28,955 nt of DNA from Verrucomicrobiaceae bacterium (GTDB lineage: Bacteria > Verrucomicrobiota > Verrucomicrobiia > Verrucomicrobiales > Verrucomicrobiaceae): assembly GCA_031425215.1 (NCBI GenBank), contig JANPIW010000852.1:1-28955 (forward strand), given 5' to 3'. Each line of letters starts with the position of its first letter. The first letter of the stretch is position 1. The notes below the pieces were generated by a model, which worked only from the letters and a program-made list of their open reading frames with translations, was not told where the DNA came from and made no database searches. Shown one piece after another: positions 1 to 17,226 of the stretch. The translations under genes were made by a program, and so were the position numbers.

Positions 1-118
1 GAAGAGACACGAATAAAGAGGCTCAGTTCAGAAGGCATTCCATTCGTGTTCATTGGTGTCCATTCGTGGTTCCTCATCCTGCATTCCGAATCTTGAAACA
101 CTCAATCCTCACATTCCT

Positions 119-841
119 ATGAAATCGAAAATCCAACAGCCCCAAGCCCTTGCGGGCGCGGCTACGGCTGACCACCCGCCTGCGCGGGCAGTTGCTCCTG
201 AAAAAGGGAACCTGGAACAGAAAACCGGGAACTCATTTGTCACCGCTACCAACCCTGCCTTGCCCCTTGATGGTGCGTTGGTCATGGCGGACGTTTTGAG
301 AAGCCAGTTTAACGGCCTGGTTGTGATGATCCAAAATATTCCTGCCGGACCTCCGGGGCCGCAGGGTATCCAAGGCATTCAGGGGCCGCCGTTTGCGACG
401 GCCATCATTGATGGTGTGACGACGCTGCCGGCTGGTGAGCAGGCTTGGGTGACTTCGTTCTTTGATGGCACGGATGTGCATTTCTCGTTTGGCATTCCGA
501 TGGGTTTCGTGGGGCAGACTGGCGACACGGGGCCGCAGGGGCCGCCTTTCGCACAGGCGGTGGTGGATGGGGTGACGACGCTGCCTTTCGGTGATCCTGC
601 CTGGGTGACGGTGGGCTTTGATGGAGCGGTGGTGCATTTCTCCTTCGGCATCCCGCAGGGTGAGCAAGGGACGTCGGGTGGGGTGACGATGGCGCAGCTC
701 GATGGAGCGATCAGCGGCACGAGCAGCAACACGAATGCAGTGAGCACCCTCGGCCTGGTCGTGAGCGATCCTCCAACCCAAGCAGAGGTGCAGTCTCTGG
801 CAAACAAAGTGGATGAACTGATCCTGGCACTGCGCAGATGA
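119..841 (+). CDS. Collagen-like repeat protein with an internally duplicated ~45-aa module; possibly tail-fibre-like.
   Basis: ORF track 53..841. The first ATG is at 119 (MKSKIQQ...); codon 53 is an alternative start. G-X-Y runs GPPGPQGIQGIQGPP and GQTGDTGPQGPP are each followed by a near-duplicate module (PPFATAIIDGVTTLPAGEQAWVTSFFDGTDVHFSFGIPMG / PPFAQAVVDGVTTLPFGDPAWVTVGFDGAVVHFSFGIPQG). The C-terminal tail is predicted helical. No signal peptide or SD is seen. Confidence 0.45.
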   Translation: MKSKIQQPQALAGAATADHPPARAVAPEKGNLEQKTGNSFVTATNPALPLDGALVMADVLRSQFNGLVVMIQNIPAGPPGPQGIQGIQGPPFATAIIDGVTTLPAGEQAWVTSFFDGTDVHFSFGIPMGFVGQTGDTGPQGPPFAQAVVDGVTTLPFGDPAWVTVGFDGAVVHFSFGIPQGEQGTSGGVTMAQLDGAISGTSSNTNAVSTLGLVVSDPPTQAEVQSLANKVDELILALRR

Positions 842-1204: not shown

Positions 1205-3514
1205 CTACAGCTTCATCGGGTGATCCTCGCCGATGACCTTCACTTCCAGCTCAAGCTGGATGCCGCGCTCGCGGAGGGCGGCCTCTTTGATGTCGTCGAT
1301 GAGATCGAGCACCTCGCGCGCGGTGGCGTGGCCGGCGTTGACGATGAAGTTTCCATGCACGTCGGACACGATGGCTTTGCCCACGCCGGTGCCTTTGAGC
1401 TTCAGCTCATCGACGAGTTTCCCGGCCTGCGCGGGCAGCGGGTTTTTGAAAACGCATCCCGCGCTTGCGCCGATGGGCTGTGACTCTCGGCGCTTCGCAT
1501 GTGAGGCGGCGAGCTTGGCGTCGATCTCATCGAGCGGCGCGGGTTTGCCTTCGAGCACAGCGGAGACGACAAAGCGCTCCTCGAACTCGGGCACGCTGCG
1601 GTAGTTCGCGGTGATCTCGGCTGCGGTCTTTTCTTTGATGGTGCCGTCGCTGTCGATGAAGCGCACGCTCACGATCTGGTCGAAGGTCTGCGTGCCCATC
1701 GCGCCGGCGTTCATGCGGATCGCGCCGCCGAGATTTCCCGGGATGCCTTCCATCCACTCGAACCCGCCGATGCCCGCCGCGCGCGCGGAGCTGGCGACCT
1801 TTTTCAAGCGCGCGCCGACGCCGACGGTGAGGCGGTTGCCATTGGCCGTGACGTTCTCCAGCTCGCCCTTCGACGGGTGGATCACCGCGCCACGGATGCC
1901 GCCGTCTTTGACGAGAAGATTCGAGCCGCGCCCGATCACGCGGATGGGCACCGCAGCGCCGCGCAAGTAACGCACGATCTCTGCAAAGCCGCCCTCGGTG
2001 CGAGGCTCCACCCAATACTGCGCCGGGCCGCCGATGCGAAAGGTGGTGTGCAACGCCATCGGCTCATACAAGCGCGCCACGCCGCCGCCGTGGTGATCGA
2101 GGATGGCACAGAGCTGCTCGATCACTTTCAAATCACGCGCGATGCACGCGCCGACCTCGTGGACATTGCCCGCGCCGAGAGTGATGAGCAGATCGCCAGG
2201 CCGGATCGCATTGCCGACGATGTCGCGCGCGACGGGCATCGTGGGTGTGGAGTGACATGGGATTTTGGTGCGTGCGCGCACTTCATTCAGAATGGTCTCA
2301 CCGCTCACGCCGGGCAGCGGTTTCTCGCTCGCAGGATAGATGTCGGTGACGAACAGCTCGTCCACGTCATCGAAGGCCTCGCCGAACTCCTTCTTCAAAA
2401 GCTGTGTGCGCGAGAAGCGATGCGGCTGGAAGAGGCAGAGGATGCGCTTCGGATTCAGCCCCTTCGCCGTGGCCAGCGTGGCTTTCACCTCGCTGGGATG
2501 ATGGCCGTAGTCATCGATGACGGTGAAGCGCTCTCCCGAATGCCTGATCTCAAAACGCCGCCGCGCGCCGCGGAAACTTTGCAGCGCGTGTTTGATCAAA
2601 TCAAAGCTCACACCGAGCCGCATCGCGAGCGCGATGGCGGCGAGCGCGTTGGAGACATTGTGCTTGCCCGGAATGCCCAGTGTGGCCTCACCGAGTTTCT
2701 CTCCACCAGCGAAGACCTCGAAGTCCGTTTGAGCGGGCCGCATCGCGGTGATGTTCGCGGAGAAATCCATGCTGCGATCCCAGCCATAGCTCACGGAGTT
2801 CGGCTGCCCGGCGCACACCTCGCGCGCCACGGGATCCTCGGCGCAGTAAATCCAATGGCCGCTCGTCTGGCTGAGCAGTTGGCGGAACACCACTTTGATC
2901 GCCTCGATGTCGGCGTAAAAATCCAGGTGCTCCGGCTCGATGTTCAAGATGATCGAGTGACGCGGGTGGAAATTCACGAGCGTGCCGTCGCTCTCATCGC
3001 CCTCCGCGACGAACAGCTCCCCTTCCCTGTCCCAATGCGCGTTCGTCCCTAGGATCGGAATCTCAGCGCCGACGTAATGCGATGGTTTCAGCCCGCCTTG
3101 TCTCAAAACATGCGCCGTCAGCGCCGAGGTCGTGGTTTTGCCGTGCGTGCCCGCCACGATGACCCCCTGCTTGCACGCCATCACCGCGGCCAGTGCCTCC
3201 GCGCGACGCACCAGCGGGATGCCTTCTTTGAATGCGGCCTCATACGCCACATTGCCCGGCTTGATCGCCGAGGAGTAAATGACCATGTCGCAATCCTCCA
3301 CCTCGCGCTCGCAGTGCGGTGAGAAAAACTTCAGCCCCATTTTCTCCAGCCGCTCCGTCTCCAGCGTCGTCACCTTGTCAGAGCCGCGCACCGCGTGCCC
3401 GAGGCCGATGAGCAGAGAAGCCAGCCCGCTCATGCCCGAGCCAGCGACACCGATGAGATCGATGGTCATCGGATGACGGTTTTCTTTCAAGATGCTGAGG
3501 ACGGGATGGATCAT
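1205..3514 (-). CDS. murC-murB: Bifunctional MurC-MurB fusion: UDP-N-acetylmuramate--L-alanine ligase plus UDP-N-acetylenolpyruvoylglucosamine reductase.
   Basis: The N-terminus carries the Mur-ligase signature IGVAGSGMSGLA...GTHGKTTTSA. The C-terminal ~300 aa is MurB-like (FAD-binding RIGGPAQYWV...RVIGRGSNLL...AGCVFKNP). The ORF track starts at a TTG at 3565. ATG options are 3514 (MIHPV...) and 3469 (MTIDLIG...); the latter matches canonical MurC N-termini. Confidence 0.85.
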   Translation of the reverse strand: MIHPVLSILKENRHPMTIDLIGVAGSGMSGLASLLIGLGHAVRGSDKVTTLETERLEKMGLKFFSPHCEREVEDCDMVIYSSAIKPGNVAYEAAFKEGIPLVRRAEALAAVMACKQGVIVAGTHGKTTTSALTAHVLRQGGLKPSHYVGAEIPILGTNAHWDREGELFVAEGDESDGTLVNFHPRHSIILNIEPEHLDFYADIEAIKVVFRQLLSQTSGHWIYCAEDPVAREVCAGQPNSVSYGWDRSMDFSANITAMRPAQTDFEVFAGGEKLGEATLGIPGKHNVSNALAAIALAMRLGVSFDLIKHALQSFRGARRRFEIRHSGERFTVIDDYGHHPSEVKATLATAKGLNPKRILCLFQPHRFSRTQLLKKEFGEAFDDVDELFVTDIYPASEKPLPGVSGETILNEVRARTKIPCHSTPTMPVARDIVGNAIRPGDLLITLGAGNVHEVGACIARDLKVIEQLCAILDHHGGGVARLYEPMALHTTFRIGGPAQYWVEPRTEGGFAEIVRYLRGAAVPIRVIGRGSNLLVKDGGIRGAVIHPSKGELENVTANGNRLTVGVGARLKKVASSARAAGIGGFEWMEGIPGNLGGAIRMNAGAMGTQTFDQIVSVRFIDSDGTIKEKTAAEITANYRSVPEFEERFVVSAVLEGKPAPLDEIDAKLAASHAKRRESQPIGASAGCVFKNPLPAQAGKLVDELKLKGTGVGKAIVSDVHGNFIVNAGHATAREVLDLIDDIKEAALRERGIQLELEVKVIGEDHPMKL

Positions 3515-3578
3515 GGCGGCGGATGAAATGAGCGCGGAGCGTAGCTGTGGAAGCGACGGCGGCAACTTGCGAGCGTCG

Positions 3579-3842
3579 TCAATACCTCACGCGCTGGATG
3601 TCCACGACACGCAATTCATCGACTGCCCCGTCATGCCACCAGGTGATGAGGAAAGGGTGCGCGGCGCTTACGTTCAGGTGTCGGCCTGACTTGTCAGTCA
3701 GCGCGTATTCAGATGCCTCCAACCAGTGATGGTCACGCAACCGTTCCAGCGACAGGAGCACTCTCCTGCGGACCGAGCCGCGCAATGAGAGCAGGAAATG
3801 CAGCGCACTTTCCTCGAGGACTAGTGACGGCGAGGCTGCCAT
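3579..3842 (-). CDS. Putative RelE/ParE-family type II toxin.
   Basis: 87 aa. The start lies 2 nt after the stop of the upstream small gene. The C-terminus HPFLITWWHDGAVDELRVVDIQRVRY follows the RelE/ParE tail pattern (..RiiY...v.Vl.I.hR.d.Y). Confidence 0.5.
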   Translation of the reverse strand: MAASPSLVLEESALHFLLSLRGSVRRRVLLSLERLRDHHWLEASEYALTDKSGRHLNVSAAHPFLITWWHDGAVDELRVVDIQRVRY

Positions 3843-3844
3843 GT

Positions 3845-4057
3845 TTACCAGCCTTCCCGTTCGAGGCTTTCGTGCATCCGTACGGCTTGTTCGAGGGTGA
3901 ACTTCTTCCCGGCCTCAATTCGATCACCACGAGCCGCCAGCTCCCCGAGATACACGTCGTCTCGCGAATTCGCCAGATGTTGCAAATAGGCAGCGGCAAG
4001 AAAACGGTCCTCGTCGGACATCGCATCAATCTGGCTCTTAATCTCTGTCAGGCTCAT
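3845..4057 (-). CDS. Putative antitoxin, resembling the addiction-module-component family (TIGR02574-type).
   Basis: MSLTEIKSQIDAMSDEDRFLAAAYLQHL...EAGKKFTLEQAVRMHESLEREGW is a small acidic helical protein immediately upstream of the toxin ORF. The start is ambiguous: ATG at 4057, ATG at 4087, or GTG at 4099. Confidence 0.5.
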   Translation of the reverse strand: MSLTEIKSQIDAMSDEDRFLAAAYLQHLANSRDDVYLGELAARGDRIEAGKKFTLEQAVRMHESLEREGW

Positions 4058-4146
4058 GAAGCGGATGATAGAGGACACCGGTTTCATTTCAACTGACACG
4101 ATGGCGGCATTTCCCGTGGCTGCGGCATTGTGCCGCGGTCCGTCCT

Positions 4147-4218
4147 GGCGGCTTTCAGCCGCCTGTCTGAGGTTCGGGTGGCTGGAAGCCTCCGAGACGG
4201 GCTGCGGCAGAATGCCGC
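4147..4218. repeat. Two short hairpins in the murG/antitoxin spacer, possibly an operator or processing sites.
   Basis: ggcggc-tttca-gccgcc at 4147-4163 and tgcggca-gaa-tgccgca at 4202-4218. Neither has a U-tract on either strand. Confidence 0.4.
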
Positions 4219-4225
4219 AACTACT

Positions 4226-5497
4226 TTACTGGCGCTGCTTCTCCGCGAGTTCCTCGATGGCAGCCGCGATTTGATCGGCGGAATCGCGCACGGCCAGTTT
4301 CATCGCGGCGGTTCTCATTTCCTTGGTGACGCTCTCGTTCATCATGATTTCGCGCACGGCATCGACGAGGTTCGTGGCATTGATCTCGGACTCGGGCAGC
4401 AATCTCGCGGCACCTGCGTCGGCGAATATCTCCGCGTTCTTTGTTTGATGATCGTCAGCGGCAAACGGATACGGCACGAGCAAACTCGGCAGACCAAACC
4501 ATGCGAACTCCGTGAGCGTGGACGCGCCGGCGCGCGCGATGGCGAGATCGGTGGCCTGATACGCCAGCTCCATGCGGTGGCAGAACGCGGCGACATGTTG
4601 CGGCAACAGCGGGTGCTTCGCGTAGGAGTCACGCACTTCGACATAGTCGGACGGACCGGCGATGTGGAGCACCTGGATGCCGAGGCGCTCGAATTGATCC
4701 AGAGCCATGCACACCACGCGGTTCACTCCACGCGCGCCCTGGCTGCCACCCATGATGAGCAGCGTTTTCTTCGCGGGATCGAGTTTGAAAAACGCGTGCG
4801 CATCCTCGCGCGCCTGCTGCCTCATGCCGCCGCGGATCGGTGTGCCGACGAATCGCACATCGTTGTGCTTTGGAAAATGCGCGCGGCATGAGTCGAGACC
4901 CACCAGCACCACGTCACTCCAGCGCGCGGTGAGCCGGTTGGCTTTTCCTGGCACGGCGTTCGAGTCGTGGATGAGCGTGGCACGCTTCTCCTGCCGTCCC
5001 GCGAGCACGGGCGCGAGCGATGTGAATCCGCCCATGCCGAGCACGACATCGATCTTCCGATCACGGATCATCGCGCGGCATTGACGCAGCCCTTTCCAGG
5101 TGCCGGACAAAAAGGAGATCATTTTCGGCGACCAGGGTTTCGGCATGGCGAGGAATGGCATGCGCTCGAATTTCATCGACGCATGACCCGACGCTGCGAG
5201 CGCGTCGATTTTCTTCTCACTGATCAGCAGGGTGACATCATGCCCGCGCTGGATGAGCGTCTCTCCGACTGCGATTCCGGGAAACAAGTGTCCGCCGGTG
5301 CCACCACACGCGATGAGAACGCGGAGACGCGAAGGCGGCGCCACCCGCCTGGTTGCGCCCGGAGCTTCAGACAAGCCGGCGGCTTGATCCACCCTCAAAC
5401 CCGGCAACTCATCCGCCACGTCATCGACTCCGCGCCTGACAGCCGGTCTCGTCGCACCATTGCCTCCACCGCCGCCTCTGTTTTTCTTCTTCGCCAC
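4226..5497 (-). CDS. murG: MurG, the undecaprenyl-PP-MurNAc-pentapeptide GlcNAc transferase, with a basic Gly/Arg/Lys-rich N-terminal extension of ~55 aa.
   Basis: RVLIACGGTGGHLFPGIAVGE is the canonical MurG N-terminal motif, but here it begins at residue ~57. The start is a GTG at 5497 with GAGG 4 nt upstream. There is no internal ATG before the G-loop. Confidence 0.85.
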   Translation of the reverse strand: MAKKKNRGGGGGNGATRPAVRRGVDDVADELPGLRVDQAAGLSEAPGATRRVAPPSRLRVLIACGGTGGHLFPGIAVGETLIQRGHDVTLLISEKKIDALAASGHASMKFERMPFLAMPKPWSPKMISFLSGTWKGLRQCRAMIRDRKIDVVLGMGGFTSLAPVLAGRQEKRATLIHDSNAVPGKANRLTARWSDVVLVGLDSCRAHFPKHNDVRFVGTPIRGGMRQQAREDAHAFFKLDPAKKTLLIMGGSQGARGVNRVVCMALDQFERLGIQVLHIAGPSDYVEVRDSYAKHPLLPQHVAAFCHRMELAYQATDLAIARAGASTLTEFAWFGLPSLLVPYPFAADDHQTKNAEIFADAGAARLLPESEINATNLVDAVREIMMNESVTKEMRTAAMKLAVRDSADQIAAAIEELAEKQRQ

Positions 5498-5503
5498 GAC
5501 GCC

Positions 5504-5637
5504 TCAGTTATGCGGAGTGTAGGAATGCGCAGTGCGGATCACAGGCAGTTGGCCCCATACGAGGTGGGTTTCCTGGTGACGGATGTGATACGACAAATCA
5601 ATAGCAATCATGGTGGATCAGAGCCGACACCGTAGCT
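5504..5637 (-). repeat. Decayed direct duplicate of the last ~135 bp of ftsW, including a relic stop 6 nt before the murG start.
   Basis: The minus-sense strand of the spacer reads agctacggtgtcggctctg...tggggccaactgcctgtgatccgcactgcg...ataactga. The ftsW 3' end reads agctacgtcggctccagc...tgggatcagctaccggtgatccgcaggaaa...cagatctga. By eye about two-thirds are identical. It encodes a 35-codon remnant ORF (5504-5611) ending ...QLPVIRTAHSYTPHN. Confidence 0.45.
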
Positions 5638-5682
5638 CACCCTCCGCGAAGGCAAGTTGATGTTTGACTCCAAATTCACCAA

Positions 5683-6825
5683 TCAGATCTGCGGTGTGAA
5701 GCGGTGTTTCCTGCGGATCACCGGTAGCTGATCCCAGGAGACGTGGACGCCCTGGCGGTGGATGTTGAGCAGGATGCCGATGATGATCATGGCGGCGACG
5801 AGGCTGGAGCCGACGTAGCTCACGAAGGGCAGAGGCAGGCCTTTGTTGGGCAGCAAGGATGTGGTGACGCCCATGTTGAGCAGGGCCTCCATGCTGAGCA
5901 GCAGCGTGAGGCCAAAGCCGAGGAGCTTGCCGAAGCGATCAGGCGCGCACGACGAGATGCTCATGCCGGCGATAAGGATGAAGACAAACATGAGCACGGT
6001 GCCGATGACGGCGTAAAGGCCGAGCTCCTCTCCGACGACGGGGAAGATGAAATCGGTGTGCGCCTCGGGGAGGTAATCGAGCTTCATGCGTCCATCACCA
6101 AGACCGAGACCTCTGATGCCGCCGCTGCCGAAGGCGAGCTGGGCGACCCATTGCTGGAGGCCGTAGGTGTCTTTGTATTTCTCGAGGTCATACACGGAGA
6201 TGATGCGGGCCATGCGATTCGGGTAATAGTGAATCGCCCCGGCGAGTGCGCTGCCGGCGGCGAGCACGCTGATCAATAGATAATGCCAGCGTGTGCCGGC
6301 GACGAACATGATCGACAGACCGACGGCGGCCGCGAGCGATGCATTGCCGAGGTCTGGCTCCATGCCGATGGGCAGCACGACGACGGCGAGGATGAGGCCC
6401 GGCAAAATGAAGCCGCGCGTGAAGGTGGATGTCGTGGCTTCATTGCGCGCGAACCACGCGGCAAGCGCGATGACGACGGCGATCTTGGCAAACTCCGAAG
6501 GCTGGACGCGCAGTCCGCCCACGCCGAGCCAGCGCGTGGCGCCGTTGATCGTGAAACCCACCCCAGGCACGAGCACGAGTGCGAGGAGAAACCCCGCGAC
6601 ACCGAGAACGTGCCAGCGCCAGCGCTGGAAGCGGCTGTAATCAAACATGGCAAAGAACGCGCAACCCAACGCGCCGATGCCGAGGTATTTGATCTGCTTC
6701 CAGAGCGTGAAGTATTCCTCGCCTCTTCCTTCCTCAATGAAGTACGTCGTGCTGGCCAGCATGACCAAACCCAAGGTCACGAGGAGGCAGACGGCCAGGA
6801 TGAGGAGGAGGAAGGTGGCTTTCAT
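5683..6825 (-). CDS. ftsW: FtsW, the SEDS-family peptidoglycan polymerase/lipid II flippase.
   Basis: 380 aa, ~10 TM, and typical SEDS blocks (FVVLPIGMEPDLG, GLQQW). ATG at 6825. Confidence 0.85.
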   Translation of the reverse strand: MKATFLLLILAVCLLVTLGLVMLASTTYFIEEGRGEEYFTLWKQIKYLGIGALGCAFFAMFDYSRFQRWRWHVLGVAGFLLALVLVPGVGFTINGATRWLGVGGLRVQPSEFAKIAVVIALAAWFARNEATTSTFTRGFILPGLILAVVVLPIGMEPDLGNASLAAAVGLSIMFVAGTRWHYLLISVLAAGSALAGAIHYYPNRMARIISVYDLEKYKDTYGLQQWVAQLAFGSGGIRGLGLGDGRMKLDYLPEAHTDFIFPVVGEELGLYAVIGTVLMFVFILIAGMSISSCAPDRFGKLLGFGLTLLLSMEALLNMGVTTSLLPNKGLPLPFVSYVGSSLVAAMIIIGILLNIHRQGVHVSWDQLPVIRRKHRFTPQI

Positions 6826-6921: not shown

Positions 6922-7932
6922 TCACTGCTTCGCGGGGATCACCAGCTTCATGCCGTCGCGCATCTTCGCGGGGTCTTTGATCTTGTTGGCTTTGATGAGG
7001 GCATCAATGGAGACGCCGTATTTGGATGCGAGGCGATAGAGCGTCTCACCCTTGGCGAGGACGTGACTTGTGGCGGGCGCAGCGGTTTTGGCGGAAGGCT
7101 TGGCAGCAACTGGCGCGGTGGGTTTGACGATGGGGCGCTTGGCCATCTCGCTGGGTTTGGGGACGGGGTTTGGCGGCGGTGCGATGGATCTGGCCTTGGG
7201 TGTCACGGGCGCGGGCGGCGGTGCGGATTCGATGACCGGCTCGACGGGCGCGGGAGGTTCGGTGGCGGCTACGACGGTTTCATCGAGGCTGTCGATCTTG
7301 GCGAGCATGGGCGCGGGTGGTTCGTCGAGCGGCACGGTGCTGTTGTTCTCCTCGGGCAAAGTGAGGCTCATCGCTGCGGGTGGGACGTTGACGCTGGTGG
7401 TCTCGGCCACTGGCTCAGTGCGAGGTTCGAGCGTGGTGGGCGTGACGGTGGCGGCGGCGGGGAGGCTCTGCGCGATGACGACATCGAGCGGCGCGTCCGC
7501 GATTTTCTCGGGCACGCGGAGGACGGTGCCGGTGGAGATTTGCACGTCATCGCTGCCGAGCTGGTTGAGCGCGACGAAGGCGTCTTTGTCCACGCCGAGG
7601 TGCGCGACGATGCGCGGGACCGAGTCGCCAGATTGCACGGTGTACTTCTGCTCTGTCGAGGGAGCAGCAGCAGCGTTTGCAAGCATCGCTTTTGCTGCTG
7701 GCGCGACGCGGACTTCTTCCTCGCCGCTCTTCGTGAAAAAGTCGTGAAACACAATGCCGCCGACAACGAAGACGTGCAGCACGAGCATGACGACGAAGGT
7801 TCGCGCGACGCCGCTGTTGGGTTCATGCGCGTTCCATTCACCTTCACTCGTGATAGTGGCGGCGACGTGATGGCGGTGCTTCTGGCTGTCGAGGATGTTC
7901 AACAGGAGTTTGGGCTTGGGTTTGGTTTTCAT
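6922..7932 (-). CDS. Bitopic membrane protein with two LysM domains and a long Pro/Ala/Thr/Glu-rich linker, lodged between murD and ftsW.
   Basis: The ORF track runs 6922..8151, but the 5' part overlaps murD in another frame. The first ATG after the murD stop is at 7932 (MKTKPKPK...). A TM segment is ARTFVVMLVLHVFVVGGIVF. LysM-1 is YTVQSGDSVPRIVAHLGV...VLRVP. LysM-2 is the C-terminal HVLAKGETLYRLASKYGVSIDALIKANKI...LVIP. Confidence 0.6.
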   Translation of the reverse strand: MKTKPKPKLLLNILDSQKHRHHVAATITSEGEWNAHEPNSGVARTFVVMLVLHVFVVGGIVFHDFFTKSGEEEVRVAPAAKAMLANAAAAPSTEQKYTVQSGDSVPRIVAHLGVDKDAFVALNQLGSDDVQISTGTVLRVPEKIADAPLDVVIAQSLPAAATVTPTTLEPRTEPVAETTSVNVPPAAMSLTLPEENNSTVPLDEPPAPMLAKIDSLDETVVAATEPPAPVEPVIESAPPPAPVTPKARSIAPPPNPVPKPSEMAKRPIVKPTAPVAAKPSAKTAAPATSHVLAKGETLYRLASKYGVSIDALIKANKIKDPAKMRDGMKLVIPAKQ

Positions 7933-9315: not shown

Positions 9316-10449
9316 TCAGCGAAGTTTGAGCGTGGCGAGCCCGAGCATCGCGAAGATGAGCGAGGCGATCCAAAAGCGTGTGATGACCTGGTTCTCGTGC
9401 CAGCCGCCGAGTTCAAAGTGATGATGGATCGGCGACATGCGGAACACGCGTTTGCCGCGCGTCTTGAAGCTGATCACCTGAATGATGACGCTCATGGCCT
9501 CGCACACGAACACGCCGCCGACGAGGGCGAGGACGATTTCTTGCTTGCAGCCGATGGCGAGGGTGGCGATGCAGCCGCCGAGCGCGAGGCTGCCGGTGTC
9601 ACCCATGAACATTTTTGCCGGATGCGCATTCCACCAGAGGAAGCCGAGGCAGGAGCCAGCGAGCGCCATGGCGACGACGGGCAGTTCGGATGCGAGCGAG
9701 TGATGCGGGATGACGAGGTATTCGGAATACACGGCATTGCTGCAAAGATAGCCGAACGCGGCATACGCGAGCGCGGTGGTGAGAGAGCAACCGGTGGCGA
9801 GTCCGTCAAGGCCGTCGGTGAGGTTCACCGCGTTTGACGCGCCGACGATAATGAGTGCGAAGATCACGACCGCGAATGGCCCCATGTCCCCGATGAGCGC
9901 TTCTTTGAGAAACGGCACATGCAGCGCGCGGAGGTGTCCGTCATTGAGATCCCCAGGGATGCCGTAGGCGAAGAACATTCCGGCGGCGAAGGCGACGCCA
10001 AACTGCCACACGAGCTTGAAGCGCGCGCTGACGCCTTTGGAGTTCTTCTTGCTGATCTTCAAATAGTCATCCCAGAAACCGAGGGCGCCGAGGCCGATGG
10101 TGGTGAGCAGCACGGCCCAGACCACGGGGTTGCTCCATTTCATCCAGAGCAGCGACGAGATGACGACGGAGCCGAGAATGAGGATGCCGCCCATCGTGGG
10201 TGTGCCGGCTTTTTTGCCGTGCAGTTCGAAAAGTTTGTTCACCTCCGCGGCACTGCGGATGGGCTGGCCGATCTTGAGCGAGATGAGTTTGCGGATGAGC
10301 GGCTCGCCATACATGATGGAGAGCATGAATGCGGTGACGACCGCGCCACCCGCGCGAAAAGTGTGGTAGCGGAAGACGTTGAGCAGCTTGTAAATGAAGC
10401 CGTCGGGAGAGGAGAACAGGTCTCGATGTTCGAAGAGCCAGTAGATCAT
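9316..10449 (-). CDS. mraY: MraY, phospho-N-acetylmuramoyl-pentapeptide transferase.
   Basis: MIYWLFEHRDLF...FRAGGAVVTAF... and NAVNLTDGLDGLA are present. The long Arg-rich upstream part of the 536-aa ORF is an artefact. The start at 10449 overlaps the murF stop (ATGA). Confidence 0.9.
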   Translation of the reverse strand: MIYWLFEHRDLFSSPDGFIYKLLNVFRYHTFRAGGAVVTAFMLSIMYGEPLIRKLISLKIGQPIRSAAEVNKLFELHGKKAGTPTMGGILILGSVVISSLLWMKWSNPVVWAVLLTTIGLGALGFWDDYLKISKKNSKGVSARFKLVWQFGVAFAAGMFFAYGIPGDLNDGHLRALHVPFLKEALIGDMGPFAVVIFALIIVGASNAVNLTDGLDGLATGCSLTTALAYAAFGYLCSNAVYSEYLVIPHHSLASELPVVAMALAGSCLGFLWWNAHPAKMFMGDTGSLALGGCIATLAIGCKQEIVLALVGGVFVCEAMSVIIQVISFKTRGKRVFRMSPIHHHFELGGWHENQVITRFWIASLIFAMLGLATLKLR

Positions 10450-11813
10450 GATGCGCGGAAATGAGTGAGAACTTTCTCCATGCCAGCGGAGCGGCTGCCT
10501 TTGAGAAGGACGGTGTCGCCAGGTGCGAGGAAGGCGCGGAGGTGCGCGGCGCAGTCGGAGTGGGAAGCAAAATGCTGCGTGGTGAGCGATGAGGACGCGG
10601 CGGTGGAAATGAGCGAGGATTCGTTGTCGCCGACGGTGAAGAGGGCGTTGAGGTGGGTGCGCGCGGCGAATTCTCCGAGGGCGCGGTGCTCGGGTTCGGC
10701 GTGGATGCCGAGTTCGCCCATGCGACCGAGGACGGCGACGCGGCGGCCGTTGGTGTTGATGCTCGAGAGTGTTTGCAGGCCGGCGCGCATGGAGTCGGGG
10801 TTGGCGTTGTAGCTGTCGTCGAGGAAGGTGATGCCGTTGATGGTTTTGGTTTCGAGACGGCCGCCAGTAAGCGTGACGTTGCGCAGCGCGTCGCCGATGA
10901 CTTCGGGTGCGATGCCGTGTTTCCATCCGGTGGCTGCGGCGAGCGCAGCGTTGCCGACCATGTGCTGGCCGGGGATGGGGAGAAAAGTGGCGACGCGCTC
11001 GCCGCCAAAGTCGAGCGTGAAGGATGTGCCATCAGCGCGCTGATCGAGATCGAGCGCGGCGATGTCGCCAGTGCCGATGCCTGCGGTGATGACGTTGGCT
11101 TTGCAGCGTGCGGCGATGGAGGCGGTGAAGTCATCGTTTGCATTGAGCACGACGGTACCGCTGGCGGGGACGGCTTCGGCGAGCGTGCCCTTCTCGATGG
11201 CGATGGCTTCGCGCGTGCCCATGTACTCGATGTGCGCGACGCCGACGTTGGTGATGATGGCGGCGTCAGGCGCGGCGATGTCAGCGAGGATTTTGATTTC
11301 GCCTGGATGGTTCATGCCCATCTCGAGGACGGCGCAATTGTTGCCTTCCGAAAGGCAGAGGATGGTGAGCGGTAGTCCGATGTGGTTGTTGAGATTGCCG
11401 AGCGTGGCGCACACGCTGAAGGCGCGCGACATGACGGCTTTGGTGAAATCCTTGGTGGAGGTCTTGCCGTTGCTGCCGGTGATGCCGATGACGCGTGGTG
11501 CGTGATGGAGGCGGTAGTGGTGGGCGAGGCGCTGGAGCGCCAGGAGGGTGTCGGGGACTTCGATGATGGTGCAGGGGAGCGCTGTTGTAGCGCTGTCAGC
11601 TTTGCTGACGATGATCGCGGCTGCGCCTGCTTGCGCGACTTGGGGGAGGAAGTTGTGCGCGTTGAATTTGTCGCCGACGAGCGCGATGAAAACGTCACCC
11701 TGTTTGATGGCGCGGGAGTCGGTGCTGACGCTCGTGACCATGCGCGTGGCGTCACCGGAGCGGATGATACCGCCGGCGAGGTCTGCGATGATGGTGAGCG
11801 GAATCGATTTCAT
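10446..11813 (-). CDS. murF: MurF, UDP-MurNAc-tripeptide--D-Ala-D-Ala ligase.
   Basis: GITGSNGKTSTK motif and MurF-like N-terminus. The ATG at 11813 overlaps the murE stop (ATGA). Confidence 0.85.
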   Translation of the reverse strand: MKSIPLTIIADLAGGIIRSGDATRMVTSVSTDSRAIKQGDVFIALVGDKFNAHNFLPQVAQAGAAAIIVSKADSATTALPCTIIEVPDTLLALQRLAHHYRLHHAPRVIGITGSNGKTSTKDFTKAVMSRAFSVCATLGNLNNHIGLPLTILCLSEGNNCAVLEMGMNHPGEIKILADIAAPDAAIITNVGVAHIEYMGTREAIAIEKGTLAEAVPASGTVVLNANDDFTASIAARCKANVITAGIGTGDIAALDLDQRADGTSFTLDFGGERVATFLPIPGQHMVGNAALAAATGWKHGIAPEVIGDALRNVTLTGGRLETKTINGITFLDDSYNANPDSMRAGLQTLSSINTNGRRVAVLGRMGELGIHAEPEHRALGEFAARTHLNALFTVGDNESSLISTAASSSLTTQHFASHSDCAAHLRAFLAPGDTVLLKGSRSAGMEKVLTHFRAS

Positions 11814-13300
11814 TCCTGGTAGTCTTCGTCGCGGGTGGATTTGAGCTGGCTGATGATGTTCTTCGCGATGCGGCGATCATCGAAGGGGGTGCGCTTGCCG
11901 TGGACTTCCTGGTAGGTCTCGTGGCCCTTCCCTGCGATGAGGACGATGTCGCCGTCGCGGGCGAGTTCGAGGGCGGCGCGGATGGCGGTTTTTCGGTCGG
12001 GGATTTCTCCGTGGCCGGCGCGGGTGAAGCCTTTTTTCGCATCGGCGATGATGGACTGCGGGTCTTCGGTGCGCGGGTTGTCGGAGGTGAGGACGCAGAG
12101 GTCGCTGCCTTCCTCGGCGGCGCGCGCCATGAGGGGGCGCTTGAGTTTGTCACGATCTCCACCGCAGCCGAACACGGTGATGATGCGGGAGGGCTTGAGC
12201 GCGCGGAGAGTGCGGAGCACGCTCATTATTGCGTCGGGCGTGTGGGCGTAGTCGACAAAAACCTGGCAGCGCTCTTTGTCAGTGATGCGTTCGAGGCGGC
12301 CGGGGACTTGCGGCGCGGCTTTGAGATGATTGATGCTCTCGCGGAGGTTGAGGCCCATGGCGTGAGCGGCGGCGATGACGGCGAGAGAGTTGGCGACATT
12401 GAAGTCGCCGATGAGCGGGATGCGCACGAGGAAGGAGCGGCCGCGCGCGTCGAGTTCGAATGTGGTGCCGCTCATGTCATAGCGGACGTTCGATGCGCGG
12501 AAGTCGAGGCCGTAGCCCTGGCCGTAGGTGCTGACGCGTTTGGTGTGTTCGAATTGTTTGATGAGCTTCCGGCCCCATGCGTCATCCGCGTTGATGATCA
12601 TCTGGCCTTTGCCGGCATCGGCGACGTTTTGAAACAGCAGTGTCTTGGCGGCGAAGTAGTCGTCCATCGTGCCGTGGTAATCGAGATGATCCTGCGTGAG
12701 GTTTGTGAAAATGGCGGCGGCGAACGGGATGCCGTGGGTGCGCTGCTGGTGGAGCGCATGGGAGGATGTCTCGATGGCGACGGCGCGGCAGCCGTTGGTT
12801 TGCATCGTGGCGAAGAGCGACATCAGCTCGAGCGACTCGGGCGTGGTGTGCGTGGCGGGGACTTGCTCACCGCCAAGGTCGTAAAACATGGTGCCGATCA
12901 ATCCGGCCTGCACTTGCGCGGCGTTGAGCAGGTAGTGAAGGAGAAAGGCGATGGTGCTTTTTCCATTCGTGCCGGTGATGGCGGCGATGCTAAGCGCGCG
13001 CTCGGGATGCGCGTAAAACGTGGCGGCGATCTGGGCGAGGGCGACGCGGGAATTTTTGACATGCACCCAGGGCACGGTGGCATCAGCGGGTGGGGCGCTT
13101 TCGGCGATGATGGCGGACGCGCCTGCTTTCAATGCGGTGGGGATGAATTCATTCGCGTCGAGCTTTGAGCCGCGAATGGCGACGAAGGCGGTGCCGGGGG
13201 CGACCATGCGGGAGTCGTACGCAATGGCGGTAATCTCGGTGTCGAGGCTGCCGGATGCGACGGGCTTGTCGAGATCGGTGATGAGATCGCGCAGGGTCAT
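11810..13300 (-). CDS. murE: MurE, UDP-MurNAc-L-Ala-D-Glu--2,6-diaminopimelate ligase.
   Basis: GTNGKSTIAF, and the DNPR motif (TSDNPRTEDP) typical of meso-DAP-adding MurE. The ATG at 13300 overlaps the ftsI stop. Confidence 0.85.
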   Translation of the reverse strand: MTLRDLITDLDKPVASGSLDTEITAIAYDSRMVAPGTAFVAIRGSKLDANEFIPTALKAGASAIIAESAPPADATVPWVHVKNSRVALAQIAATFYAHPERALSIAAITGTNGKSTIAFLLHYLLNAAQVQAGLIGTMFYDLGGEQVPATHTTPESLELMSLFATMQTNGCRAVAIETSSHALHQQRTHGIPFAAAIFTNLTQDHLDYHGTMDDYFAAKTLLFQNVADAGKGQMIINADDAWGRKLIKQFEHTKRVSTYGQGYGLDFRASNVRYDMSGTTFELDARGRSFLVRIPLIGDFNVANSLAVIAAAHAMGLNLRESINHLKAAPQVPGRLERITDKERCQVFVDYAHTPDAIMSVLRTLRALKPSRIITVFGCGGDRDKLKRPLMARAAEEGSDLCVLTSDNPRTEDPQSIIADAKKGFTRAGHGEIPDRKTAIRAALELARDGDIVLIAGKGHETYQEVHGKRTPFDDRRIAKNIISQLKSTRDEDYQE

Positions 13301-15168: not shown

Positions 15169-15515
15169 GGCGAGGTGCGGGCCACGTCTGCTGTCGCGGG
15201 CGGCGGGATGGGCGGCAGGTAGATGAGCCTGTCTTTGGTGATGGGACGAAGGAGGGTGCGCGCATTGGCGAGACGTGGCTGCACTTTGTCGCGCGTGAGG
15301 AGGCTCTCGATGCGGAGGTCGAGTGCGGAGATTTCTTGATTGAGCAGTTTCACTTCTTTTTCGAGCTCGCGCTGCTGGTCGGAGAGCGCGTGGGCGAAGT
15401 TTTGATGATGCACCATGCCGAGGGCGATGCTGATGAGCACGGCGGTGACGATCACGAGCGCGATGACCGTGGGCAGGCGGATGCCGTTGCGATAGCGGTG
15501 GCGGTTGCGGCTCAT
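15165..15515 (-). CDS. ftsL: FtsL-like bitopic cell-division protein.
   Basis: 116 aa with a basic N-terminus, one TM (LPTVIALVIVTAVLISIALGMV) and a coiled-coil (QQRELEKEVKLLNQEISALDLRIESL). It sits between rsmH and ftsI. The ATG at 15515 overlaps the rsmH stop. Confidence 0.55.
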   Translation of the reverse strand: MSRNRHRYRNGIRLPTVIALVIVTAVLISIALGMVHHQNFAHALSDQQRELEKEVKLLNQEISALDLRIESLLTRDKVQPRLANARTLLRPITKDRLIYLPPIPPPATADVARTSP

Positions 15516-16453
15516 GGCAGTTTCTCTGCGGCGCGCAGTCGGGCGCTGCGCGAGCGCGGGTTGCGGTTGGATTCCTCGGGCGATGGCTCCTGCGGTTTGC
15601 GCGTGATGAGCCTCATGCAGTAGTCAGGATTCGGCCGCGGCTCAGGCCACTCGGGGCGGTCATTCATCTGCTTGCTCACATGATGAAACGCCTGCTTCAC
15701 GATGCGGTCTTCGAGGCTGTGAAATGAAATGGCGAGCAGCACGCCGCCGGGTTTCAACCAGCGCGGCGCGGCTTCGAGAAACTGCTGCAGCGCCGCCAGC
15801 TCATCATTCACCGCGATGCGCAGCGCCTGAAACGTGAGCGTCGCGGGATGACGGCGGCCTTTGCCGCGACCGATGGCACCAACGATCACGGCGACGAGAT
15901 CGAAGGTGGTGAGGATTGGGTTCTTATCACGCGCACGAACGATGGCGCGGGCGATGCGGCGGGCTTGCGGCTCTTCGCCGTATTCGCGCAGGATGCGCTC
16001 GATCTCGTCGGCATCCTCCATGTTCACGATGTCAGCGGCGGAGCGCGCGGCGCGTCCATCCATGCGGAGATCGAGCGGACCGTCGTGCTGAAACGAAAAT
16101 CCGCGCGCAGGCTCGTCGAGCTGATGACTCGATACACCGAGATCGACGATCATGCCGTCGAAGCCCGTCACGCCCGTCTCAGCGAGGATCTCGGGAAAGT
16201 GGCGGAAATTTCCATGCAACGCGCAGAAGCGATCACCGAAAGCGCTCAGCCGTTTCGAAGCGTGACGGATCGCATTCGCATCCTGATCCATCGACACCAC
16301 ACGCGCGCCCTCTTGCAGCAGCGCTTCGGAGTGCCCGCCCCCGCCGAGCGTCCCATCAAAAAACAAACGGCCAGGCGCGGGCCGGAAATATTTCACGACC
16401 TCGGCAAGCATCACGGAGTCGTGATAAAAATCGAGCTTGCCGCGCAGGCTCAT
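15512..16453 (-). CDS. rsmH: RsmH (MraW), 16S rRNA m4C1402 methyltransferase.
   Basis: HDSVMLAEVVKYFRPAPGRLFFDGTLGGGGHSEALL. The ORF track extends to 16756, but the upstream 100 codons are low-complexity G/D-rich with atypical A/T-ending codons, so the start is taken at ATG 16453. Confidence 0.8.
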   Translation of the reverse strand: MSLRGKLDFYHDSVMLAEVVKYFRPAPGRLFFDGTLGGGGHSEALLQEGARVVSMDQDANAIRHASKRLSAFGDRFCALHGNFRHFPEILAETGVTGFDGMIVDLGVSSHQLDEPARGFSFQHDGPLDLRMDGRAARSAADIVNMEDADEIERILREYGEEPQARRIARAIVRARDKNPILTTFDLVAVIVGAIGRGKGRRHPATLTFQALRIAVNDELAALQQFLEAAPRWLKPGGVLLAISFHSLEDRIVKQAFHHVSKQMNDRPEWPEPRPNPDYCMRLITRKPQEPSPEESNRNPRSRSARLRAAEKLP

Positions 16454-17226
16454 GTCCGGGTCCTCATCGTCGTCGGGCTGACCGTCATCACCACCGCCTG
16501 AAGAACGCTCACCAAACAACCCGCGCCCTCCGCCACCAGAGCCAGCGCCTGCATCGACCTGACCAAACCACGGCCAGCTCCCGACCTGCGAAAGCTGCCC
16601 GACACCTCTGACGAGTCGAGCAACCGCGCGCTCGATCTCGCCGAAAAGTGAAGGTTGATTCACATCCACTGGAGAAAAACCGGGCCATTTAGCTGTGATA
16701 CTGGTTTCCATAACGGGACTAAGGGTGATGAACTGTGAACTGGAGCCGGGTGGCATTTTCCATAATTTTTCAACAGTTTGGATGTCTTTATATCTAACCT
16801 GTCGAATTTTGGCAACGGCATTTTTTAGAAATTTCCGAATCGGCTGGGTTTGTCAGGCTCGACGGGCTGTGCCCGATTTTTATCACCCGAAGCATCTGCT
16901 GCCCTGATTGACGGCGTGAATCCGGAAGAAAGATTGGTTTTAATCTACCAAACTGGGGGAATACCGCCGTTCCAAGTCAACCACAAATTGTAAAAATCAT
17001 GGTCAACCCAATCCCTACGCCTCCCAGCAGGCCAACCTCTACGGCCCGACTTCCGACTCACAAGGCGGCGTCACGCAAATGGTCGTTCTGCACCTGGGCA
17101 AGACGAAGCCGTGGGTGTGATTCATGTCTGTGATGCTGTGGATTCATGCGGCGTACATCGTCGGTATGATGGTGTTTTCGGCCGCATTTGCCGCAGGCGT
17201 GAGCGGCCCCGCCAAAAAAAGACGGC
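16454..17226 (-). promoter_or_regulatory. Long AT-richer leader/promoter region upstream of the dcw operon; no mraZ.
   Basis: ~770 bp with no convincing ORF and a locally lower GC content (16700-17000). No MraZ-like translation appears in any frame. Specific -35/-10 boxes could not be assigned with confidence. Confidence 0.3.

Follow-up and report, generated by a model that had tools for sequence, protein, structure and literature searches.

The closest described counterparts of the gene pair reported here are found among the compact RelE mRNA interferases, represented by structures from T. thermophilus (2khe), P. horikoshii (aRelE, 1wmi) and M. tuberculosis (RelE1, 9g12; RelE2, 3g5o), and among the ParE gyrase poisons, represented by those of P. 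aeruginosa (6xrw), M. tuberculosis (ParE1, 8c24) and E. coli O157 (ParE2, 5czf). Generic hallmarks of such type II toxin-antitoxin systems are a small, adjacent and conserved gene pair and one product whose fold belongs to a recognized toxin superfamily, both of which are found here. The pair, termed genes A and B, occupies part of a 711-nt segment between murG and a murC-murB fusion gene in a 28,955-nt stretch of DNA (hereafter the window) assigned to a Verrucomicrobiaceae bacterium. We consider it likely that these 711 nt represent an inserted chromosomal module of the type II toxin-antitoxin type, with gene A as the antitoxin and gene B as the toxin. With similar confidence, we regard the pair as a previously unannotated, sequence-orphan family of the RelE/ParE type II kind.

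All genes of the locus lie on the minus strand. Upstream of the insert, the window carries a dcw cluster comprising rsmH, ftsI, murE, murF, mraY, murD, a LysM protein gene, ftsW and murG, and the 4-nt overlaps pointed out in an earlier, sequence-only reading of this DNA are observed at ftsI/murE (13297-13300), murE/murF (11810-11813) and murF/mraY (10446-10449). The last dcw gene upstream of the insert is murG (4226-5497; TIGR01133, 3.7e-80; Pfam Glyco_transf_28 and Glyco_tran_28_C), and the downstream neighbor is murC-murB (1205-3514; TIGR01082 murC, 1.4e-129; PRK13905 murB, 2.2e-88). The longest murC-murB open reading frame (ORF) starts at 3565; alignment with three related loci (L012, L017, and L019; M/V-N-H-A-V-L-S) sets the conserved start at ATG 3514 (M-I-H-P-V-L-S). 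The canonical adjacency of murG and murC is therefore absent from the window, the junction being interrupted by 711 nt that contain the two small co-directional genes, gene A at 4057-3845 and gene B at 3842-3579. The GC content of the insert (0.57 to 0.60, versus 0.60 to 0.65 in the flanks) shows no anomaly.

Several other features of the window are recorded here in their own right. Between murD and ftsW, positions 6922-7911 (minus strand) encode a Pro/Ala-rich protein with a C-terminal LysM domain and weak DipM/SafA-type matches, and the spacing in relatives suggests that a LysM gene is kept at this place in the dcw cluster. The longest rsmH ORF (15512-16756, minus strand) encodes 414 aa, of which the RsmH model covers only residues 110-412, so that either the true start is internal or the N terminus is extended; this check did not reveal mraZ. 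At the other end, murC-murB (ending at 1205) and a collagen-like ORF with GPPGPQG repeats (53-841, plus strand) converge on a perfect inverted repeat of 28 bp (920-990; loop, 15 nt), possibly a bidirectional terminator.

Gene A has three candidate starts (4099, 4087, and 4057) with a common end at 3845. Since all its homologues are 70 aa long and start at the position of ATG 4057, we take gene A to be the 70-aa version (4057-3845) and not the 80- or 84-aa versions. The spacer between murG and gene A measures 168 nt from this ATG, or 126 nt from GTG 4099, and the spacer between gene B and murC-murB (3515-3578) measures 64 nt, in agreement with the ranges given previously. The TAA of gene A is followed by AC and then by the ATG of gene B, leaving the 2-nt gap already noticed, and the 87-aa product of gene B ends exactly as had been quoted, in ...HPFLITWWHDGAVDELRVVDIQRVRY.

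When either protein alone served as the query, word-indexed searches for homologues recovered only proteins A and B themselves, on one contig, and neither protein has a Pfam, NCBIfam, PADLOC, or PDB sequence match, even at E ≤ 1-10. An exhaustive HMMER scan with the gene B protein yielded 35 cluster representatives, nearly all of 81 to 94 aa and 29 to 52% identity, in which W69 and D71 are invariant and R25, L35, R54, E76, and R78 nearly invariant. The gene A profile recovered 343 clusters, all named "hypothetical protein" and none with a Pfam domain. For the pairing of the two genes, 31 metagenomic loci encoding gene B homologues were retrieved; the locus scan was seeded with a 7-sequence alignment, the 31-sequence toxin alignment being too diverse as a seed. 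Wherever upstream sequence is present, a 70-aa gene A homologue (40 to 60% identity) lies directly upstream of the gene B homologue. Overall, the module is seen at approximately 45 metagenomic or metagenome-assembled genome (MAG) loci in constant order, and every source that names an organism is Verrucomicrobiota, while no homologues of the pair were found in plasmid and viral collections. In 24 complete pairs the gap between the genes is -4 nt (ATGA), -1 nt (TGATG-type), or +2 to +4 nt, and the median pairwise dN/dS is 0.10 for gene A and 0.13 for gene B, values that indicate purifying selection. The homologous pairs, tight gaps, and low dN/dS show that genes A and B are real, co-inherited, and translationally coupled. 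The family-invariant residue sets of both proteins are intact in the proteins of the window.

The gene B protein is modeled with high confidence by AlphaFold2 from the 31-sequence alignment (pLDDT, 93; pTM, 0.82), with the topology beta1-alpha1-alpha2-beta2-beta3-beta4-beta5. All 50 of the 50 Foldseek matches listed are toxins of the RelE/ParE superfamily, and among these listed matches compact RelE proteins come first (TM, 0.70 to 0.76), followed by YoeB and then ParE. At the level of sequence, none of the 31 gene B family members matches PF05016 or RelE at E ≤ 1, and a PDB sequence profile search was likewise empty. Using hhalign, the gene B toxin profile aligns to E. coli RelE (sequence checked against 4v7k) with a probability of 3.8%, over only 22 columns and out of register. 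Against the toxin of locus L011, a confirmed PF05016 member, the probability is 2.8%; this alignment is full-length and collinear, with L65 of gene B opposite the conserved Arg of that toxin. Because neither HMM searches nor hhalign provide a link, the RelE/ParE label for gene B holds at the fold level only. The earlier proposal of a RelE/ParE-type toxin thus stands for the fold but not for a PF05016/RelE sequence match, and the 87-aa ORF proves to have both a recognizable fold and homologues.

When gene B is aligned by hand to E. coli RelE, with secondary structure as the guide, the RelE catalytic residues K52, K54, R61, R81, and Y87 lack conserved counterparts: F64 takes the place of R61, the positions opposite K52 and K54 are variable, and the sequences of the gene B family stop short of the R81-Y87 segment. 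The protein has a net charge of 0.0, within a family range of -3.4 to +3.7, and is thus near neutral, not basic. The conserved R54 and R78, together with the frequent R84 and R86, could form an aRelE-like site. While the predicted structure leans slightly to the compact RelE proteins, the missing RelE residues and the near-zero charge are no less compatible with an activity that is ParE-like or altered.

With a pI of 4.85 (family median, 5.4), the gene A protein is acidic, and AlphaFold2 predicts it to be all-helical, with four helices and moderate confidence (pLDDT, 74.5). Its model has no meaningful structural neighbor and no recognizable DNA-binding fold. Acidity, an all-helical prediction and only moderate model confidence are together characteristic of antitoxins that become ordered upon binding. 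The first gene had been described as TIGR02574-like, which holds as a resemblance and not as membership: none of the 19 gene A family members matches TIGR02574 or PF09720 at E ≤ 1, nor does the protein of the window. Separately, a PDB query with a PF09720 consensus matched only designed helical repeat proteins.

Within positions 3300-4500, the only sigma-70-like site is TTGAAA-16 nt-TATCAT (4065-4092, minus strand; 10/12 matches); 7 nt separate the end of its -10 hexamer from ATG 4057. We compared the window with 27 homologous loci, anchoring the sequences on the gene A start codon. The homologous loci display TTGC(G/C)A, a spacing of 16 to 17 nt, and TAnnnT upstream of the gene A start. Across all 28 sequences, the -10 element ends 6 to 7 nt before the ATG or GTG in 22, and a -35/-10 score of at least 7/12 is reached in 26, compared with 15% of control positions. 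No Shine-Dalgarno motif fits between the -10 element and the gene A start. Because the conserved -10 element abuts the start codon and leaves no room for a Shine-Dalgarno motif, this arrangement implies that the pair would be transcribed from its own conserved sigma-70-type promoter as a leaderless bicistronic mRNA.

Gene B would be translated from a Shine-Dalgarno-like motif, GGGAAGG, located 9 nt upstream of its start and inside the end of gene A. In the scan of 3300-4500, no terminator-like site was found after gene B, and the 86-nt stretch 3590-3505, which contains the spacer to murC-murB, folds at only -14.3 kcal/mol (z, +2.26). Since a terminator is absent and the spacer is unstructured, transcription from the module promoter probably also reads through from gene B into murC-murB.

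Upstream of the promoter, and 2 nt beyond the stop codon of murG, begins a long imperfect hairpin of approximately 110 nt (4116-4224, minus strand), formed by an inverted repeat of 4116-4163 against 4177-4224, with 48-nt arms that are 79% complementary. GCGGCA-N3-TGCCGC palindromes at 4122-4136 and 4204-4218 are parts of this one inverted repeat, and a 19-nt direct repeat, GGCTGCGGCA-N3-TGCCGC, is present in two copies (4118-4136 and 4200-4218). The 171-nt RNA segment containing the hairpin (4228-4058) folds at -79 kcal/mol (z = -5.96), and none of 200 shuffles is as stable. The hairpin is without a T-run, contains nothing resembling a terminator, and has no further copy in the window; no integron attC core sites (GTTRRRY) were seen in it by eye, and an Rfam scan of 3400-4400 gave only generic long-hairpin matches far below threshold. 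The two upstream-spacer hairpins reported from the sequence do exist, but the operator role suggested for them is unsupported: the palindromes lie off the promoter (the hairpin is situated 24 to 132 nt upstream of the -35 element) and are not conserved, while the start-abutting promoter is. The palindrome pattern is found in four loci, never at a module promoter, and no similar hairpin precedes the module in the other loci. The hairpin could be a processing site, an attenuation site, or an insertion remnant.

For the history of the junction, we compared 24 related murG loci (44 to 76% identical), all from Verrucomicrobiota. In nine of them (L012, L013, L017, and L019-L024), murC-murB comes after murG with no small genes in between. 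Four of these relatives (L012, L017, L019, and L023) have a 4-nt overlap (ATGA or GTGA) between the two genes, and for L021 the choice of start decides whether there is an overlap or the genes abut. Because relatives overlap in this way and murC-murB of the window still begins with ATGA, we conclude that the 711 nt were inserted into an ancestral 4-nt overlap, and the type II architecture and insertion proposed previously are borne out at this junction. No direct repeats that would represent a target-site duplication flank the insert. The module would have entered the murG/murC-murB overlap and uncoupled both genes.

The same junction is also disturbed elsewhere. In the closest relatives (L002, L003, L005-L008, and L014-L016), murG has no murC-murB within 6 kb, and in V. 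spinosum, where murCB is essential, the locus tags place murG (VSP_RS19435) far from murCB (VSP_RS18435) (PMC12283558). At the junction of L013, we observe a 160-nt spacer (1335-1494) with a long hairpin, GGCTGATAGC...GCTATCAGCC, of -44.8 kcal/mol, where the sister loci L012 and L019 have the 4-nt overlap. In L011, a Verrucomicrobiota MAG, murG and murC-murB are convergent with approximately 3.3 kb of unrelated genes between them, and a Phd/YefM antitoxin (PF02604) and a ParE_toxin (PF05016) are encoded directly downstream of murC-murB (7124-7610, minus strand). Taken together, the split relatives, V. spinosum, L013, and L011 identify the murG/murC-murB junction as a recurrent breakpoint and landing site in this lineage.

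Outside the window, the module occupies varied contexts. Most members are part of a fixed block in which a GFO_IDH_MocA oxidoreductase gene, A, B, and an AP_endonuc_2 TIM-barrel gene follow one another (L029, L035, L037-L040, L042-L046, L051, and L058-L067; for example, L058 at 3787-6612). The flanking genes of this block are 64 to 74% identical, and the wider neighborhoods differ, with three different backgrounds. Other copies follow a sulfatase gene (L026, L069, and L070) or cdsA (L068), and there are further contexts too; the closest homologues of the pair in the window are those after sulfatase or CdsA genes. Decayed copies are also observed. In L064 (5213-5420), gene A and both flanking genes are intact, but gene B has lost residues ~15-52 through an internal deletion, and in L053-L055 the copies are shortened or rearranged. 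The L064 copy represents toxin-first decay, a pattern typical of such modules.

The gene order, the acidic helical A, the RelE/ParE fold of B, the translational coupling, the promoter, the patchy contexts, and the toxin-first decay are the grounds on which we read the pair as a type II toxin-antitoxin module. If the pair works as RelE/ParE systems do, A would bind and neutralize B, and free B would arrest growth; we infer this neutralization from gene order and charge only. The putative target of B would be either ribosome-bound mRNA, as for RelE, or DNA gyrase, as for ParE. An origin as chance open frames in GC-rich DNA, or as an assembly artefact, might be suspected in a window of 60% GC with many spurious overlapping ORFs, the exact proteins being present on one contig only. 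It is refuted by the comparative data and retains next to no probability, given dozens of homologous pairs with a dN/dS of ~0.1, a confident fold prediction, intact family-invariant residues, and the ancestral ATGA kept by murC-murB. The main rival, though a rather unlikely one, is that the pair is domesticated and nontoxic, B having lost or never had toxicity, and serves as a regulatory or adaptor complex or as a carrier of an internal promoter. The long-term fixed GFO_IDH_MocA/AP_endonuc_2 synteny across three wider backgrounds is consistent with domestication, such stability being unusual for a purely selfish element, as are the downstream genes of L051 and L067, which start 2 to 3 nt after the gene B stop codon. 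The near-neutral B, the RelE catalytic set not found by hand alignment, and the lack of plasmid or phage copies point in the same direction. However, addiction modules show just such a strict pairing with the antitoxin gene first, translational coupling, and an acidic partner. Contexts also vary outside the main clade, and L064, where the deletion affects B alone, has the asymmetry that would arise if unpaired B were harmful.

The position of the module within an essential gene cluster raises the further idea, also put forward in the sequence-only reading, of a dedicated switch that couples expression of murC-murB or the dcw cluster to a growth-arrest toxin. The essentiality of murCB in V. spinosum (PMC12283558) and the lack of a terminator between B and murC-murB agree with such a switch, and the very stable hairpin after murG could isolate the downstream genes from dcw read-through. 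Nevertheless, we find nothing that supports this link and judge it very improbable: the dcw placement is unique, occurring in none of the 24 murG loci and none of the approximately 45 family loci, and the closest homologues follow sulfatase or CdsA genes, the family elsewhere sitting in unrelated contexts. In addition, the junction behaves as a general breakpoint, being split in nine close relatives and in V. spinosum, and it has received a different hairpin insert in L013, with an unrelated Phd/ParE_toxin pair after murCB in L011. A rewiring in which the hairpin would block or process dcw read-through and murC-murB would rely largely on the leaderless promoter of the pair is doubtful as well; if true, it would tie peptidoglycan-precursor synthesis to the autoregulation of the module and its stress response. 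In the same doubtful reading, taken more broadly, the family may persist between co-directional genes, such as GFO_IDH_MocA and AP_endonuc_2 elsewhere, by supplying an internal promoter to the gene downstream. The module is thus most likely a selfish or neutral passenger and not a dedicated regulator of cell wall synthesis, and the alternative of a selfish insertion, already considered from the sequence, fits the data.

Under the toxin-antitoxin reading, the RelE/ParE toxin superfamily gains a sequence-orphan branch with an unclassified four-helix partner. Annotation pipelines currently call both proteins hypothetical, and the family could receive profile models. The start-abutting promoter predicts leaderless expression, which to our knowledge is rarely documented for such modules. 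The locus also indicates that a tightly coupled junction of an essential cluster tolerates uncoupling. Nothing points to a role of the module in regulating cell division, and its biological weight is therefore modest.

Compared with the known systems, gene B shares only 10 to 15% identity with the compact RelE proteins, with no HMM or hhalign link, and whereas these are strongly basic, B is near neutral and, in the hand alignment, lacks equivalents of the catalytic residues of E. coli RelE. Their partners differ too, since gene A is a four-helix protein and not of the RelB, Phd, or RHH type. ParE is set apart from gene B by the 0/31 matches to PF05016 and by Foldseek, which places ParE below RelE and YoeB among the matches listed. 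The type II pair of L011 resembles the module in lying beside murC-murB in another Verrucomicrobiota genome, but it belongs to the PF02604 and PF05016 families and is located downstream of murC-murB, not between murG and murC-murB. On the antitoxin side, gene A resembles the TIGR02574/PF09720 (Unstab_antitox) proteins in its small size, acidity, helical character, and position ahead of a gene for a RelE/ParE-fold toxin, and a likeness to their motif L-x-x-x-E/D-R-x-x-L-A is plausible by eye. Its predicted four-helix architecture has a parallel in M. tuberculosis ParD2 (MParD2), which is likewise predicted with four helices (PMC4906023).
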